From a virus (lineage: Duplodnaviria; Heunggongvirae; Uroviricota; Caudoviricetes): a DNA stretch of 31,920 bases. The notes below the pieces were generated by a model. The model was not told the DNA's origin. It saw only the letters and a program-made list of their open reading frames with translations, and did no database searches. This document shows positions 12,190 through 20,884 of the stretch, one piece after another. How positions within the stretch are numbered: position 1 is the stretch's first letter; the number at the start of each line of letters is the position of its first letter. Position numbers and translations under genes: made by a program. The DNA lies in IMG/VR virus record IMGVR_UViG_2534681762_000007; one strand, given 5' to 3'.

Positions 12190-13119
12190 ATGGCAAACAC
12201 TGCTGAGATATTCAATTTTCCAGTGCCGGATGTGGCACAAAAGGAGCCGCGCGTGGCAGATCTCGATGATGGTTATACGCGCATTGCAAATGAGTTGCTG
12301 GAAGCTGTGATGCTGGCCGGATTAACACAGCACCAGCTTCTGGTCTTCCTGGCTGTCATGCGCAAAACATATGGCTTTAATAAAAAACTGGATTGGGTGA
12401 GCAACGAGCAACTTTCCGAGTTGACCGGGATATTGCCGCACAAGTGTTCTGCTGCAAAAAGTGTTCTGGTAAAGCGTGGGATTTTTATTCAGAGCGGGCG
12501 GAATATCGGCATTAATAATGTGATCAGTGAATGGTCAACATTACCCGAATCAGGTAAGAAAAATAAAGTTTACCTGAAAGAGGTAAATTTACCTGAATCA
12601 GGTAAGAAAAGTTTACCCAAATCAGGTAAAGGCGTTTACCCGAATCAGGTAAACACAAAAGACAAACTAACAAAAGACAATATAAAACCTTTTTCGTCCG
12701 AGAATTCTGGCGAATCCTCTGACCAACCAGAAAACGATCTTCCTGTGGTGAAACCAGATGCTGCAATTCAGAGCGGCAGCAAGTGGGGGACAGCAGAAGA
12801 CCTGACCGCCGCAGAGTGGATGTTTGACATGGTGAAGACCATCGCGCCATCAGCCAGAAAACCGAATTTTGCAGGGTGGGCTAACGATATCCGCCTGATG
12901 CGTGAACGTGACGGACGTAACCACCGCGACATGTGCGTGCTGTTCCGCTGGGCATGCCAGGACAACTTCTGGTCCGGTAACGTGCTAAGTCCGGCCAAAC
13001 TCCGCGACAAGTGGACCCAACTCGAAATCAACCGTAACAAGCAACAGGCTGGCGTGACAGCCGGCAAACCAAAATTCGACCTGACGAACACTGACTGGAT
13101 TTACGGGGTGGAGCTATGA
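12190..13119 (+). CDS. O: Replication initiator O, hybrid: non-lambda N-terminal/iteron-binding half, lambda-like C-terminal half
   Basis: MANTAEIFNFPVP...VADLDDGYTRIANELLEA resembles lambda O N-terminus but diverges; C-terminus ...KWGTAEDLTAAEWMFDMVKTIAPSARKPNFAGWANDIRLMRERDG... matches lambda O; strong GGAGG before ATG 12190. In-frame ATG at 12100 is the alternative start. Confidence 0.88.
   Translation: MANTAEIFNFPVPDVAQKEPRVADLDDGYTRIANELLEAVMLAGLTQHQLLVFLAVMRKTYGFNKKLDWVSNEQLSELTGILPHKCSAAKSVLVKRGIFIQSGRNIGINNVISEWSTLPESGKKNKVYLKEVNLPESGKKSLPKSGKGVYPNQVNTKDKLTKDNIKPFSSENSGESSDQPENDLPVVKPDAAIQSGSKWGTAEDLTAAEWMFDMVKTIAPSARKPNFAGWANDIRLMRERDGRNHRDMCVLFRWACQDNFWSGNVLSPAKLRDKWTQLEINRNKQQAGVTAGKPKFDLTNTDWIYGVEL
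12541..12652. repeat. ori: Replication origin iterons inside O: five copies of a 17-bp palindromic repeat TTACC(C/T)GAATCAGGTAA
   Basis: Repeats at 12541, 12570, 12589, 12613, 12636, followed by an A-rich tract (12653..12690), the classic lambdoid ori layout; repeat sequence differs from lambda ATCCCTCAAAACGAGGGA. Confidence 0.85.
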
Positions 13120-14546: not shown

Positions 14547-14585
14547 GGAGGCTCTTATATTTATATGAGCCTCGTTTTATGCTTT
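14547..14585 (+). terminator. Intrinsic terminator after emrE
   Basis: Stem GGAGGCTC / GAGCCTC (14547..14573) followed by GTTTTATGCTTTTTG. Confidence 0.7.
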
Positions 14586-14772
14586 TTGTTAATGTCTTTA
14601 TTTTTTTATGTATTCTTTTGTGCTTTCAAGATTATGGCGTAAGAAAATTGCAATACGATTATTGTTGTATATTCAAGATAATGTGACCTTAATTGTCTTT
14701 TTAAATAAAAATTAAACAAAAATTATATCCCACCACTAAGGTTTATAAAAGCATACGTTAGCAGGTGTCACC

Positions 14773-16299
14773 ATGAAAAAAGCCATAGCATATATGCGAT
14801 TTTCATCACCAGGTCAGATGTCTGGCGACTCATTAAACCGACAGAGAAGACTTATTGCTGAATGGTTAAAGGTAAATAGTGATTATTATCTTGATACCAT
14901 AACATATGAAGATTTAGGATTAAGTGCATTCAAAGGAAAGCATGCACAATCAGGAGCTTTTTCGGAATTTTTAGATGCTATAGAGCATGGTTATATATTG
15001 CCAGGAACTACATTGTTAGTTGAAAGTCTGGACAGACTTTCAAGAGAAAAAGTCGGTGAAGCGATTGAACGTCTGAAATTGATTTTGAATCACGGTATTG
15101 ATGTTATAACTCTTTGCGACAATACAGTCTATAATATTGACTCTTTGAATGAGCCATATTCATTAATAAAAGCCATACTTATAGCACAAAGGGCAAATGA
15201 AGAAAGCGAGATAAAGTCAAGTCGGGTTAAATTATCATGGAAGAAAAAACGGCAGGATGCACTGGAATCAGGTACGATTATGACGGCGTCTTGTCCGAGA
15301 TGGCTCTCCTTAGATGACAAAAGAACGGCTTTTGTTCCAGACCCCGACAGGGTGAAAACTATTGAGCTAATTTTTAAACTCAGGATGGAAAGGCGCTCAT
15401 TGAATGCAATAGCCAAGTATTTAAATGATCATGCTGTAAAGAATTTCTCAGGAAAAGAAAGTGCATGGGGACCTTCTGTAATTGAAAAATTATTAGCGAA
15501 TAAAGCTCTGATAGGTATATGCGTACCTTCATATCGTGCAAGAGGTAAAGGAATAAGTGAAATCGCTGGCTATTATCCCAGAGTCATATCAGATGATTTG
15601 TTTTACGCTGTACAGGAAATTCGGTTGGCACCTTTTGGTATTAGCAATAGTAGCAAAAATCCTATGTTGATAAATCTACTTCGAACAGTTATGAAGTGCG
15701 AGGCTTGTGGTAATACCATGATTGTTCATGCGGTATCTGGAAGTTTGCATGGCTATTATGTTTGTCCGATGAGAAGACTGCATCGATGTGACAGGCCATC
15801 AATAAAGAGAGATTTGGTTGATTATAATATCATTAATGAGTTGCTTTTTAATTGTAGTAAAATCCAACCAGTTGAAAACAAGAAAGATGCTAATGAAACT
15901 TTAGAGTTGAAAATTATTGAGCTCCAGATGAAAATTAATAATTTAATTGCTGCATTATCTGTTGCGCCTGAAGTTACCGCTATAGCAGAAAAAATCAGAG
16001 TATTAGATAAGGAATTACGAAGGGCTTCTGTATCATTAAAAACTTTGAAGAGTAAAGCGGTGAGTTCACTTGGTGATTTTCATGCTATTGACTTAACCAG
16101 TAAAAATGGGCGAGAGCTATGTCGTACACTTGCCTATAAAACATTCGAAAAAATCATAATCAATACAGATAATAAAACCTGTGATATCTATTTTATGAAT
16201 GGCATTGTTTTTAAACACTATCCTTTAATGAAAACAATATCCGCCCAGCAGGCGATAAGTACTCTCAAATATATGGTTGATGGTGAGGTTTATTTTTGA
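14773..16299 (+). CDS. ybcK: Large serine recombinase (YbcK-type, DLP12-like)
   Basis: 508-aa AT-rich ORF MKKAIAYMRFSSPGQMSGDSLNRQRRLIAEWL... with resolvase-type N-terminal catalytic Ser region and Cys-rich recombinase domain (CEACGNTM...CPMRRLHRC); matches my memory of K-12 YbcK. Confidence 0.9.
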   Translation: MKKAIAYMRFSSPGQMSGDSLNRQRRLIAEWLKVNSDYYLDTITYEDLGLSAFKGKHAQSGAFSEFLDAIEHGYILPGTTLLVESLDRLSREKVGEAIERLKLILNHGIDVITLCDNTVYNIDSLNEPYSLIKAILIAQRANEESEIKSSRVKLSWKKKRQDALESGTIMTASCPRWLSLDDKRTAFVPDPDRVKTIELIFKLRMERRSLNAIAKYLNDHAVKNFSGKESAWGPSVIEKLLANKALIGICVPSYRARGKGISEIAGYYPRVISDDLFYAVQEIRLAPFGISNSSKNPMLINLLRTVMKCEACGNTMIVHAVSGSLHGYYVCPMRRLHRCDRPSIKRDLVDYNIINELLFNCSKIQPVENKKDANETLELKIIELQMKINNLIAALSVAPEVTAIAEKIRVLDKELRRASVSLKTLKSKAVSSLGDFHAIDLTSKNGRELCRTLAYKTFEKIIINTDNKTCDIYFMNGIVFKHYPLMKTISAQQAISTLKYMVDGEVYF

Positions 16300-16410
16300 G
16301 TAATAATCACTTTTTCAACCGTGCTATAGTAAGAAAGTTAGGTAAGTACAATAAAATTATCTATCCTGAACGAAGCGTCCTGAGCTATGGTTTTACTATA
16401 GAGACTGCCA

Positions 16411-16734
16411 ATGGATGCTGGCGTTCTCGTTCTAGCAGTTCAACAATACCCAATCACAAAACAATTCACTGATAACGAACTTTGCACACTCGCCTGGTTA
16501 TGGCGAGCAGGGAATGTGATGTTAATTACCTACCAGAACGTTACTCCTCTTCTTCAGGTTGCGGAGCATCGTGAAGCTGGTCGCTTCACTTCTATCGAGC
16601 AAGAATATCCCCAGATACTCAATAAGGCACAGGCAATCCTTGCCAGAGAAACGGCACATGTAAAATTCCGGCCGTGGCAGGATGATAAGTGGAGTCGAGT
16701 TTTGCCGCATTTACGTTCGGATCGATTACAGTAG
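16411..16734 (+). CDS. Hypothetical 107-aa ORF (uncertain coding status)
   Basis: Open frame MDAGVLVLAVQQYPITKQFTDNELCTLAWLWRAGNVMLITY... with no recognisable RBS or homolog; the only ORF between ybcK and the ORF-free stretch. Confidence 0.35.
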   Translation: MDAGVLVLAVQQYPITKQFTDNELCTLAWLWRAGNVMLITYQNVTPLLQVAEHREAGRFTSIEQEYPQILNKAQAILARETAHVKFRPWQDDKWSRVLPHLRSDRLQ

Positions 16735-17195
16735 ATTCCAATTAACAATGAGAAACACATAGCCACCCCGTGGTATTGAAACCATATAATGTTGGATTTG
16801 AAAACAGATCTTTTTCCATGTATTAATAACTACATCCCCGCGAGTGATTCAAAAAGGAGGGCCCAATTTTGTCCGAGTTTTTGTATTCCCCCGCATGCCG
16901 CTGCGGAGCACTACATCTGAGTGTCTGACTAGGGGATAAAATTAGACTGGATAGTGAGAAGAAAGTGGCGTGCTAGGCTGTGCCGAGTGCTACCAGTACA
17001 CCCTGGGGGTGTGCAGCTTTCGCCGAGACTGTAGTGGGTATCGGTTAATGCACGAAAAACCGAGAGGTCAGACAACCAATTTGCCGTAGGATTGTTTCCG
17101 GTGCGATACCGGTGTACTAACTGAAAGCAATGCGAAAAAGCATAAACTCGGTCCTTCAGTCGCCCTACACACTATTTACTAAGAAGGGCTAAAGC

Positions 17196-17552
17196 ATGGA
17201 TACAATTATCACATGGATGGGAGATCGTCTGTTGGGGTGGATAACAAACAAATCCGATCTGCGGCAGAGGGCAATCACTGGATTAACTCCTGCGATTTAT
17301 TCAACAATTTTATATACTGAAAAATTAAAACGTGGTGAGCCTAATAACCCAAACGAAGAAGAAAAACTTTATAGGCTTTGGTATGAAGCGTCTTCCCAAG
17401 TCGTAGACTTTGATCGAGAGCTGGCTAAAAGATGTTTAGATAAATCAGAATATTGGCTTCATTCTGAATTATATAGCCCTGAGAAAGTTGGAGAGCTAAA
17501 CATTTCTTTGGTTGGTATGAAGGCAACGCTTGAAGGAATAAAGCACAATTAA
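17196..17552 (+). CDS. Hypothetical 118-aa protein (AT-rich orphan)
   Basis: ORF MDTIITWMGDRLLGWITNKSDLRQRAITGLTPAIYSTILYTEKLKRGEPNNPNEEEK... preceded by AAGAAGGG about 8 nt before ATG; no homolog recognised. Confidence 0.5.
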   Translation: MDTIITWMGDRLLGWITNKSDLRQRAITGLTPAIYSTILYTEKLKRGEPNNPNEEEKLYRLWYEASSQVVDFDRELAKRCLDKSEYWLHSELYSPEKVGELNISLVGMKATLEGIKHN

Positions 17553-17641
17553 AACCTTTGATTTGCGATAATCAACTCGCCATAATCATGTCATCGGAGC
17601 CTGAACAACTCCGGTGACTTCTGCGCTAAACGGGGACGTTT

Positions 17642-17743
17642 ATGCGCACACACAATCCAAACTCTCTTCTCCCTCCACAGATGCAGAAATGCACCTGCGA
17701 TATATTGTATCCAGCGTTTGACCTCTGCGGAGGTGAAGCGTGA
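17642..17743 (+). CDS. ylcH: Small protein YlcH (33 aa)
   Basis: [33 protein letters not shown]; position just upstream of ybcN as in DLP12 as I recall it. Confidence 0.55.
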
Positions 17744-18195
17744 ATCTCCCACAAGATGGCATCAAATTACATCGCGGTAACTTCACCGCTATCGGTCGGC
17801 AGATCCAGCCTTATCTGGAGGAGGGCAAATGCTTTCGCATGGTGCTTAAACCGTGGCGTGAGAAACGCAGTCTTTCCCAGAATGCACTCAGCCACATGTG
17901 GTACAGCGAAATCAGTGAATACCTCATCAGCAGGGGTAAAACGTTCGCTACTCCAGCTTGGGTAAAAGATGCTCTCAAACACACATATCTCGGTTATGAA
18001 ACCAAAGACCTGGTTGATGTCGTAACCGGTGATATCACCACTATCCAGTCGTTACGCCATACCTCCGATCTTGATACCGGAGAGATGTATGTCTTCCTGT
18101 GTAAGGTTGAAGCCTGGGCGGTGAATATTGGCTGCCACCTGACTATTCCGCAGAGCTGCGAGTTCCAGCTGCTCCGCGACAAGCAGGAGGCGTAA
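17740..18195 (+). CDS. ybcN: YbcN / NinB-family protein
   Basis: 151-aa ORF (GTG start) [61 protein letters not shown]... matches my memory of K-12 YbcN. Confidence 0.85.
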
Positions 18196-18365
18196 TGGCT
18201 ACACCGCTTATTCGTGTCATGAACGGACACATCTACAGAGTACCAGATCGTCGTAAGCGTAAACCGGAGCTGAAGCCTTCCGAAATACCAACACTGCTCG
18301 GATATACCGCCAGCCTGGTTGATAAAAAATGGTTGCGACTGGCAGCAAGGAGGAATCATGGCTGA
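18195..18365 (+). CDS. ninE: NinE
   Basis: 56-aa [59 protein letters not shown]; ATG overlaps the ybcN stop (TAATG). Confidence 0.85.
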   Translation: MATPLIRVMNGHIYRVPDRRKRKPELKPSEIPTLLGYTASLVDKKWLRLAARRNHG

Positions 18366-19801: not shown

Positions 19802-20884
19802 TTAGAACTGGTAAACCATACCTACAGCAACGATATCATCGGTAGCAACGCCAGATGCTTTCGTGAAATCGCTCTTATCAATCAGGTTGATTTTGTAGTC
19901 AACAAAAGTGGACATATTTTTGTTGAAGTAATAGGTTGCACCTACATCAACATATTCAACCAGGTCCTGATCACCCCAAACACCCAAGTCTTTTCCTTTA
20001 GAATGCAGGTAAGCAACGGATGGACGCAGGCCGAAGTCGAACTGATATTGTGCAACAGCTTCGAAGTTTTGTGCTTTGTTGGCAATATGGTTATTACCAA
20101 AAACAGTCATGTTCTGGGTTTCAGAATAGGTGGTGGCCAGATAGATGTTGTTCGCATCATATTTCAGACCAGCTGCCCATACTTCAGCATTTTGACCAGA
20201 AGCATTCAGACCGTTGTTACCGTAGATAACCTGATTATTAGTGCGATCAGATTTAGCATAGGTTGCACCCACGCCGAATCCTTCATACTCATAAGTAGTT
20301 GAGAAACCGAAACCATCGCCATTAGCTTCAGTTACTTCATTTCGGTCATTTTTGCCCTGATACTGAGCTGCAAAGTTCAGGCCATCAACCAGACCAAAGA
20401 AGTCGTTGTTACGATAAGTTGCAACACCTGTGGTGCGACCAGTCATGAATACATCTGTTTGGGTCCAGGTATCGCCACCGAATTCTGGCAGAACGTCAGT
20501 CCACGCACCGATGTCGTATGCTACACCGTAGTTACGGCCGTAATCGATTGAGCCGTAGTCACCGAATTTCAGGCCTGCAAATGCAAGACGGGTTTTGTCT
20601 TTGGAGGAACCTTGAGATTCAGCGCGGTTGCCTTTGAATTCATATTCCCACTGACCGAAACCAGTCAGTTGATCGTTGATTTGGGTTTCACCTTTGAAGC
20701 CAAGACGGGCATAAGTAGTATCACCATCATCTGCATCATTAGAGGAGAAGTAGTGCTTAGCATTAACTTTCCCGTACAGATCCAGCTTGTTACTGTCTTT
20801 ATTATAAATTTCAGCTGCCTGAGCAGACATCGCCATCAGTACTGATGCAGCTACAGCAGAAATTGCCACTGTTAATTTTTTCAT
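19802..20884 (-). CDS. nmpC: Outer-membrane general porin NmpC/Lc-type, intact
   Basis: 360-aa ORF with signal peptide [23 protein letters not shown] and C-terminal ...VAVGMVYQF; typical OmpC/OmpF-family sequence; no IS interruption. Confidence 0.92.

Follow-up and report, generated by a model that had tools for sequence, protein, structure and literature searches.

What lies between ybcK and ylcH in a DLP12-type prophage that does not carry the K-12 genes of that position? The DNA considered here (the window: all 31,920 nucleotides of the stretch from IMG/VR virus record IMGVR_UViG_2534681762_000007, Caudoviricetes) is a DLP12-type lambdoid prophage of Escherichia coli, and its 1342-bp interval between these two genes (16300-17641) had been described in an earlier note as cargo consisting of two unrecognised open reading frames (ORFs). 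Both ORFs were found on the + strand with ATG starts, one of 107 aa (ORF107) and one of 118 aa (ORF118) (Table 1). The note had missed what lies between them: on comparative evidence from several lineages, the intervening 460 bp are predicted to hold a structured non-coding RNA gene under its own conserved promoter. We consider it probable that the interval is a composite of three separable pieces (a dead antirepressor fragment, an autonomous RNA gene, and ORF118) lodged in a mosaic slot, and that the RNA and ORF118 would function in conflict. As first written, the finding amounts to ordinary lambdoid mosaicism, partly mis-described; the structured RNA is the part that deserves follow-up.

The 460 bp contain no ORF longer than 48 aa, and have a G+C content of 0.51 versus 0.38 in ORF118. 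Positions 16808-17162 are kept at ~78% in Klebsiella phages without ORF118 (BLAST), and Enterobacter and Obesumbacterium loci that have ORF118 homologues also keep ~360 bp upstream of them. In an alignment of the E. coli, Klebsiella phage, Enterobacter, and Obesumbacterium copies there are long invariant blocks; conservation sets in sharply at ATCCCCGCGAG (16834) and runs as far as CAGTCGCC (about 17164). The conserved element starts ~7 nt downstream of the -10 hexamer of a putative sigma-70 promoter, with the RNA start predicted at about A16834. The hexamers of this promoter are kept across lineages (-35 TTGAAT/TTGAAA; -10 TTTAAT/ATTAAT), with a spacer sequence that varies freely; a strict consensus promoter scan did not flag the 16798-16833 site. 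At the other end, intrinsic terminators (GC-rich hairpin plus T-run) of differing sequence lie directly 3' of the RNA in at least five lineages; they are present where the next gene encodes a 183-aa or a 178-aa protein, and none is found in the window or in any ORF118 lineage. Overlapping the -35 region of the putative promoter is an inverted repeat rich in A and T, which could be an operator for a regulator; it was compared at equivalent positions in the loci L022, L046, and L012, and reads AACCATAT...ATATGGTT in several lineages, the window copy (16778-16803) being degenerate.

The RNAalifold consensus of 26 distinct sequences comprises 95 pairs in 18 helices, and the fold is modelled as two domains (RNA positions 1-104 and 112-328). 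Standard pairs are formed in 97.2% of the alignment cells, versus 35-45% when the partners are slid, and compensatory change on both sides is seen at 16 pairs (112 cells), versus 1-6 pairs (5-20 cells) in the slid controls; the covariation score is 0.208, versus about 0.05 in the latter. None of 500 shuffles reached the observed covariation values, a control that is not to be read as a probability. In a hold-out, the structure predicted from five sequences recovered all 95 consensus pairs, and 94.1% of cells were paired in nine held-out sequences (slid, 35-44%), with four pair positions showing pair types of which both bases are unseen in the training set (slid, 0-1). When the structure was predicted solely from the E. 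coli copies, which are nearly identical, it fitted other sequences less well (81% paired); it was set aside, and only the multi-lineage consensus was used. There are 260 G.U cells versus 7 A.C cells, and therefore the RNA is placed on the + strand. A covariance model of the RNA scores the window copy at 395.8 bits, and has no match in K-12 or in loci with other cargo.

Coding potential was also assessed. The variable columns of the element are distributed 46/44/46 by phase, which shows no codon periodicity, and none of the frames is free of stop codons throughout the lineages. The short reading frames that fall within the RNA, of 43 aa and 39 aa in the window and of 61 aa in other lineages, were rejected as genes, being not conserved and without periodicity; for example, the window has GACTAG where other lineages have GACCAG. 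Annotators of Escherichia phage Turner (PP925837) called two small ORFs in this region.

The RNA belongs to no described RNA family. A cmscan with the 4227 models of Rfam 15 gave zero matches for 15800-18200 at E <= 1 and for 16780-17220 at E <= 10, and an ARAGORN search of the window for tRNA and tmRNA returned zero genes. Some short strings look like E. coli tmRNA to the eye, but this lead was abandoned, as they are not collinear and neither the covariance models nor ARAGORN gave a match. Direct or tandem repeats were not found in 16834-17166, and a search for antisense targets within the phage gave only 11-13-mers at chance level. RNA positions 112-123 (GACUGGAUAGUG, window 16945-16956), which take in an invariant block, could pair without mismatch with 12 nt of ybcN (18039-18050); we judged this to be chance, the site being present in loci that lack the RNA and absent from the ybcN of several loci that bear it. 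The ROOL, GOLLD, and HEARO/omega RNAs and retron msr-msd are likewise large structured RNAs of a few hundred nucleotides on phages or other mobile elements, supported mainly by covariation; however, the RNA described here matches none of them, is restricted to enterobacterial lambdoid phages, and has no reverse transcriptase, IscB/TnpB, or other dedicated protein conserved beside it.

Among 5426 complete E. coli genomes, 159 carry a single copy of the RNA; in the 40 carriers whose rows were inspected, the annotation shows nothing at the matching position. Carrier strains include AH65, NCTC9699, NCTC11121, NCTC9966, and EC93. IMG/VR scans with four conserved-block patterns kept returning the same ~65 contigs, 22 metagenome contigs carry the RNA pattern, and a set with one representative genome per species gave zero matches; distant relatives were found in none of these IMG/VR, metagenome, and representative-genome pattern scans. 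The RNA module is present in the genomes of the Escherichia phages Turner and IdasGreatGrand. In viral contig L065 (3066-3402), the 5' 305 nt of the RNA are kept at 99% identity and the 3' end is swapped for unrelated sequence, so that this is a recombinant or truncated copy. A literature search found no paper with the RNA sequence strings, the accessions of the two proteins, or variation at this DLP12 position.

Either of the two, the RNA or ORF118, can be found where its neighbour is absent. ORF118 begins 29 nt after the RNA in the window (29-32 nt across ORF118 lineages, without a terminator), and the RNA is seen with five different downstream genes. In other lineages it is followed, after a terminator, by the gene for a 183-aa protein with an RHNLLH (RX4H) motif or for a 178-aa protein with transmembrane segments at both ends; elsewhere by a 177-aa protein, or by 95-aa plus 162-aa proteins; and in locus L022 directly by an ordinary nin-region DUF1367 gene. 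No homology was found among these alternative downstream proteins, or between them and the ORF118 family. A 'HEPN-like' label for the Klebsiella 183-aa protein was rejected: it derives from the RHNLLH motif seen by eye, and Pfam, PADLOC, and PDB give nothing. In about 62 E. coli genomes the 3' part of ORF118 is lost and the RNA upstream is intact; the pseudogene retains 60-66 codons, with a ~123-bp deletion (window 17389-17511) and frameshifts (e.g., L003 3559-3759). Between the window and an ORF118-deleted locus, the RNA is 99.1% identical, versus 89.4% for the upstream flank and 93.2%, with indels, for the ORF118 remnant; therefore, the RNA is under its own, stronger constraint. The ORF118-deleted loci have a TagO/VasI-like lipoprotein gene in place of emrE-ybcK-ORF107. 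Conversely, ORF118 relatives are also found without the RNA, and distant relatives (42% and 51% identity) also occur in prophage operons, directly after another gene.

ORF118 is a genuine protein-coding gene, and the earlier opinion that it is the better supported of the two ORFs stands. Its variable nucleotide sites across five lineages are distributed 33/27/83 by codon position, which indicates purifying selection on the protein. Close homologues are few (21 among 5.8 billion proteins, from Escherichia, Enterobacter, and Obesumbacterium), and are mostly exactly 118 aa long, down to 51% identity. AlphaFold2 predicts a four-helix bundle with a confidence score (pLDDT) of 78.8. A profile search (hmmsearch, 1.84 billion cluster representatives) recovered 328 clusters (50% identity) at E <= 1e-3, which share the motif T..Y ... 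E..L..LW..AS ... D..LA.rC..K..yW; columns Y40, E55, W62, A65, L76, K83, and W87 are nearly invariant. ORF118 is a stand-alone member of this uncurated helical domain family, which no Pfam, PADLOC, or PDB entry covers. Most representatives (105 of 143) are likewise stand-alone, at 140 aa or less, and 22 of the 143 exceed 200 aa and carry the ORF118-like domain N-terminally; their C-terminal partners include two to three predicted transmembrane segments in about 12 proteins, TIR in 2, and an alpha/beta hydrolase in 1-2. This company suggests an association with conflict systems. The concept of effector-associated N-terminal helical domains in bacterial conflict systems is reportedly due to Kaur, Burroughs, Iyer, and Aravind. 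The ORF118-like domain similarly occurs alone or N-terminal to TIR, alpha/beta-hydrolase, and multi-transmembrane modules, although it has no Pfam or PADLOC model, most of its members stand alone, and no named effector-associated domain family is assigned to it. A phage-borne copy that stands alone might serve as an adaptor, or as a decoy of such effectors.

ORF107, which the earlier note had counted as unrecognised, is recognisable. Residues 15-85 are the P22AR C-terminal domain (Pfam PF10548, E 1.1e-15; 57.9 bits against a cut-off of 22.4), and the protein matches PHROG 7640 and the C-termini of Ant PHROGs. A 202-aa protein with both Bro-N (E 1e-13) and P22AR_C is encoded at the same position in other prophages, and its residues 101-202 share 85% identity with ORF107; DNA homology to the gene of this protein begins at 16412, and the ORF107 start corresponds to about residue 97. 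In ORF107 itself, Pfam gives P22AR_C alone, with no N-terminal DNA-binding domain of the Bro-N, ANT, or KilA-N type. ORF107 is thus the 5'-truncated remnant (3' half) of a Bro-N/P22AR_C antirepressor-type gene rather than cargo itself, because the Bro-N domain of its full-length relatives is missing where the emrE-ybcK block abuts. In relation to the antirepressor-type proteins of the P22 Ant C-terminal domain family, to which HK022 Roi-like proteins belong, ORF107 shares P22AR_C and has lost Bro-N. The 107-aa 'P22AR C-terminal domain-containing protein' of current annotation therefore covers a gene fragment. A 58-aa ORF (ORF58; 16296..16472) has no family match. Neither ORF107 nor ORF118 matched a PADLOC-DB 2.0 model at E <= 1.

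What the interval represents is one allele at a mosaic accessory slot, which DLP12-type lambdoid phages have between their replication/ren and ylcH-ninB blocks. K-12 DLP12 carries ybcL and ybcM between ybcK and ylcH, as the earlier note stated; YbcL is a PEBP-like periplasmic protein and YbcM an AraC-type regulator. The possibility that the ORFs are diverged YbcL or YbcM was rejected: BLASTP of ORF107, ORF118, and ORF58 against both gave E >= 5, and K-12 nucleotide homology stops at 16338 and resumes at 17557 (blastn), with none in between. The whole interval is present in 98 of the 5426 complete E. coli genomes, and its last ~85 bp alone in about 2800. Other E. coli loci sharing the same right flank were retrieved as alternative alleles, and these bear out the proposal of a cargo-exchange position: the same flanks enclose unrelated alternative cargo with sharp homology breakpoints. 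After the same ybcK and P22AR_C fragment, the cargo is a 309-aa BstA homologue, a 260-aa protein, or a 169-aa protein; after the full-length 202-aa Bro-N plus P22AR_C gene, it is a HEPN protein (Pfam E 3e-6) with a 133-aa partner, or again the 169-aa protein. Together with ybcL plus ybcM, and with the RNA plus ORF118, these alleles mark the position as a hotspot.

Lambdoid prophages have mosaic accessory ('moron' or defence) slots, such as the cI-N slot that holds rexAB or bstA. The slot described here resembles them in its conserved flanks, interchangeable unrelated cargo, and sharp homology breakpoints, and in holding a BstA homologue in another E. coli prophage; however, it follows the replication genes, ren, emrE, and ybcK and precedes ylcH and the ninB-like ybcN, rather than lying beside the repressor as the cI-N slot does, and the window's own allele matches no defence model. 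BstA is usually described beside the prophage repressor; the BstA homologue of locus L004 sits far from it. This homologue (L004 3634-4563, E. coli YZLc23-1; PADLOC E 3.6e-121) occupies the same slot as window 16725-17556. BstA is an experimentally shown prophage abortive-infection protein (PMC8585504), and because its homologue occupies the slot, the slot trades defence-type cargo. In L007 (3621-4417), the gene of the HEPN protein (138 aa) overlaps that of the 133-aa protein, and the former weakly matches the PADLOC candidate PDC-M28A; the pair looks like a two-gene toxin-antitoxin or defence module. Homologous recombination would swap the alleles at conserved junctions: on the left, where the P22AR_C gene ends, and on the right, in the segment preceding ylcH. 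To the left of their ant gene, L007-L009 have a second, incomplete copy (~140 bp) of the sequence that precedes ylcH together with the start of ylcH itself, such that the ant-plus-cargo block is bracketed by direct repeats of ~90-140 bp; from their arrangement, these repeats are a plausible substrate for exchange or loss of cargo by homologous recombination.

Table 1. Positions of the features discussed. Coordinates refer to the window unless a comparison locus is named.
Feature	Position	Strand	Remarks
ybcK	14773..16299		
Junction sequence 3' of ybcK stop codon	16300..16410		K-12 DLP12 homology ends at 16338 (blastn)
ORF107	16411..16734	+	Pfam P22_AR_C; RefSeq WP_001351655.1; PHROG 7640
Left mosaic junction of slot	16706..16724		Last codons of ORF107; blastn ends 16706, 16714, 16716, 16724 in loci L004-L009
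Putative sigma-70 promoter of RNA	16798..16833	+	-35 TTGAAA (16798-16803); -10 TATTAA/ATTAAT (16821-16827); 17-18-nt spacer
Predicted structured non-coding RNA gene, new candidate family	16834..17166	+	~333 nt; conservation, covariation, no coding signal
Possible hairpin	17150..17190	+	GGTCCTTC (17150-17157) with GAAGGGCT (17183-17190); RNAfold of 17150-17200, -9.0 kcal/mol
ORF118	17196..17552	+	RefSeq WP_000379700.1; PHROG 12412; predicted four-helix bundle
Right mosaic junction	17549..17558		At ORF118 stop codon; blastn starts 17549-17558 in K-12 and L004-L009
Conserved boundary segment upstream of ylcH	17553..17641	+	Common to K-12 and most DLP12-like prophages
ylcH	17642..17743		
Duplicated ylcH-upstream segment	L007 2159-2296; L009 3001-3138; L008 2213-2302		Compare window 17582-17725

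In the composite that we favour, the first piece is the dead 3' half of the Bro-N/P22AR_C gene, abutting the emrE-ybcK block; the second, the predicted gene of the ~333-nt structured RNA with its own putative, conserved sigma-70-type promoter and, in several relatives, its own intrinsic terminator; and the third, the gene for the small helical protein ORF118, which in this allele would be co-transcribed from the RNA promoter, because only a 29-nt gap without a terminator separates the two. The RNA would be transcribed in the lysogen from its own promoter. Based on its long invariant unpaired blocks, its multi-helix architecture, and the lack of a conserved complementary target in the phage, it probably acts in trans as a folded, protein-binding RNA rather than as a simple antisense RNA. 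By analogy with the BstA and HEPN alleles that the slot holds elsewhere, and with the TIR, transmembrane, and hydrolase fusions of the ORF118 domain, the RNA and ORF118 most likely have a part in conflict among phages or between phage and host, whether as exclusion, abortive infection, or counter-defence.

Several points weigh against this account. The promoter and both ends of the RNA are predictions from sequence, and with no terminator after the RNA in the window, the RNA here could be a long 5' leader of ORF118. The RNA family is narrow (~28 distinct sequences from roughly seven lineages, all Enterobacterales), so that few independent events underlie the covariation. The folding energy of the sequence taken singly is unexceptional (z = -0.73 and -0.77; +0.38 on the minus strand), and was dropped as evidence for the RNA, such z-scores being uninformative. 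For ORF118, the fold matches are generic helical bundles, and the TIR, hydrolase, and transmembrane fusions are a minority, within the 22 of 143 representatives exceeding 200 aa. The conflict role is guilt by association, neither the RNA nor ORF118 having a PADLOC match.

The alternative that best withstands the evidence, which we regard as possible but doubtful, is that the RNA works in cis as a leader, or as a partner in the manner of type III toxin-antitoxin systems, and gates the expression or activity of whichever effector gene comes next; in such a two-part unit the RNA would stay the same and the effector would be exchanged. Type III toxin-antitoxin loci (ToxIN, CptIN, TenpIN) consist of a promoter, an RNA of 30-50-nt repeats, a terminator, and a small toxin gene. 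Relatives of the RNA share with ToxIN the layout of promoter, non-coding RNA, intrinsic terminator (leaky in appearance), and small same-strand gene; however, this is a single 333-nt multi-helix RNA with neither tandem repeats nor a repeat array, and the window copy lacks a terminator. The RNA is always on the strand of the next gene, 29-52 nt upstream of its start (111 nt once), and its linkage with ORF118 persists in three genera at 70-79% protein identity, which would suit a functional pair; but one nearly invariant RNA would then have to serve proteins that are unrelated to each other and to ToxN, AbiQ, and CptN, and in L022 a DUF1367 gene that is an ordinary member of the nin region. Neither PADLOC nor Pfam gives a toxin match of the ToxN/AbiQ/CptN type for ORF118 or for the proteins that follow the RNA elsewhere, and none of these proteins matches another PADLOC toxin model. 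In favour of a leader is the possible hairpin at 17150-17190 in the window, which would occlude the ORF118 Shine-Dalgarno sequence and compete with the closing helices of the RNA, although equivalent pairing is absent from the Enterobacter and Obesumbacterium versions; nor was conserved anti-terminator pairing found, the terminators themselves differing in sequence. Also against this alternative, the RNA stays 99% identical beside a deleted ORF118 pseudogene.

An extended form of this idea, which we consider unlikely as it stands, is that the RNA is the first of a new class of large structured RNAs confined to enterobacterial lambdoid phages, and that it is the invariable partner, with a sensing or gating role, in a modular conflict system of RNA and protein, whose swappable downstream effectors would be ORF118, the RX4H-motif protein, proteins with two transmembrane segments, and others. 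The logic would be type III toxin-antitoxin-like or retron-like, with neither repeats nor a reverse transcriptase.

It is very improbable that the 333 bp act instead at the level of DNA, as a site for protein binding, recombination, or replication, or are what is left of a decayed protein gene. The unremarkable minimum free energy z-score, the 61-aa GTG-initiated ORF that spans part of the element in some lineages, and the two small ORFs called by the phage Turner annotators would be in keeping with such a reading. However, neither a DNA site nor the opposite strand is expected to show the asymmetry of G.U over A.C, and also against this reading are the compensatory changes that maintain 95 pairs, the conserved promoter upstream with same-strand terminators downstream, and conservation exceeding that of the adjacent real coding sequence; codon periodicity is lacking, and the small ORFs are interrupted in other lineages. 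That the interval is simply two protein-coding cargo genes of 107 aa and 118 aa with an ordinary intergenic spacer, as in the RefSeq/PGAP annotation of exactly these two coding sequences and nothing between, is barely credible, given that ORF107 lacks the N-terminal Bro-N domain of its full-length relatives and that the 'spacer' is the best-conserved sequence of the interval, with covariation.

The surroundings of the interval agree with the flanking order of DLP12 that the earlier note had given. Both flanks have 96-97% nucleotide identity to K-12 DLP12 (blastn). The 1342-bp interval is 100% identical in several complete genomes, including E. coli AH65, in which the RefSeq order is, on the left, replication O/P, ren-like, emrE, ylcJ (frameshifted), and ybcK; in the slot, 'P22AR C-terminal domain-containing protein' (ORF107) and 'hypothetical protein' (ORF118); and on the right, ylcH, ybcN, ninE, ybcO, rusA, ylcG, and quuD, then a porin. 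A promoter scan reported a promoter-like site at 17558-17586, within the boundary segment upstream of ylcH. The frameshifted ylcJ (window 14565-14715, between emrE and ybcK) is intact in K-12. The reverse is seen for the nmpC/ompC-type porin gene (window 19802-20884, - strand), which is intact at 360 aa and is split by IS5 in K-12 DLP12. The central 861 bp (16700-17560) have 99.8-99.9% identity to the deposited genomes of Escherichia phages Turner and IdasGreatGrand, which, together with the intact porin gene, suggests that the prophage may be functional rather than cryptic. At 12541-12657 there are four to five direct repeats of ~22 nt (TTACCCGAATCAGGTAA...) with internal palindromes, which look like lambda-type origin iterons within the O-like replication gene.

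E. coli prophages are among the most heavily annotated DNA, and the RNA has gone unannotated in the 40 inspected carriers despite its conserved sequence, promoter, terminators, and covarying helices; long 'intergenic' stretches in prophage cargo slots thus merit comparative analysis at the RNA level. ORF118 provides a foothold on an uncurated family of 328 clusters, whose TIR, hydrolase, and membrane fusions hint at immune or counter-immune signalling. If transcribed, the RNA would represent a previously undescribed family of large structured RNAs, in a host that is genetically tractable, and its location next to a position where abortive-infection genes such as bstA are exchanged makes its function directly testable.

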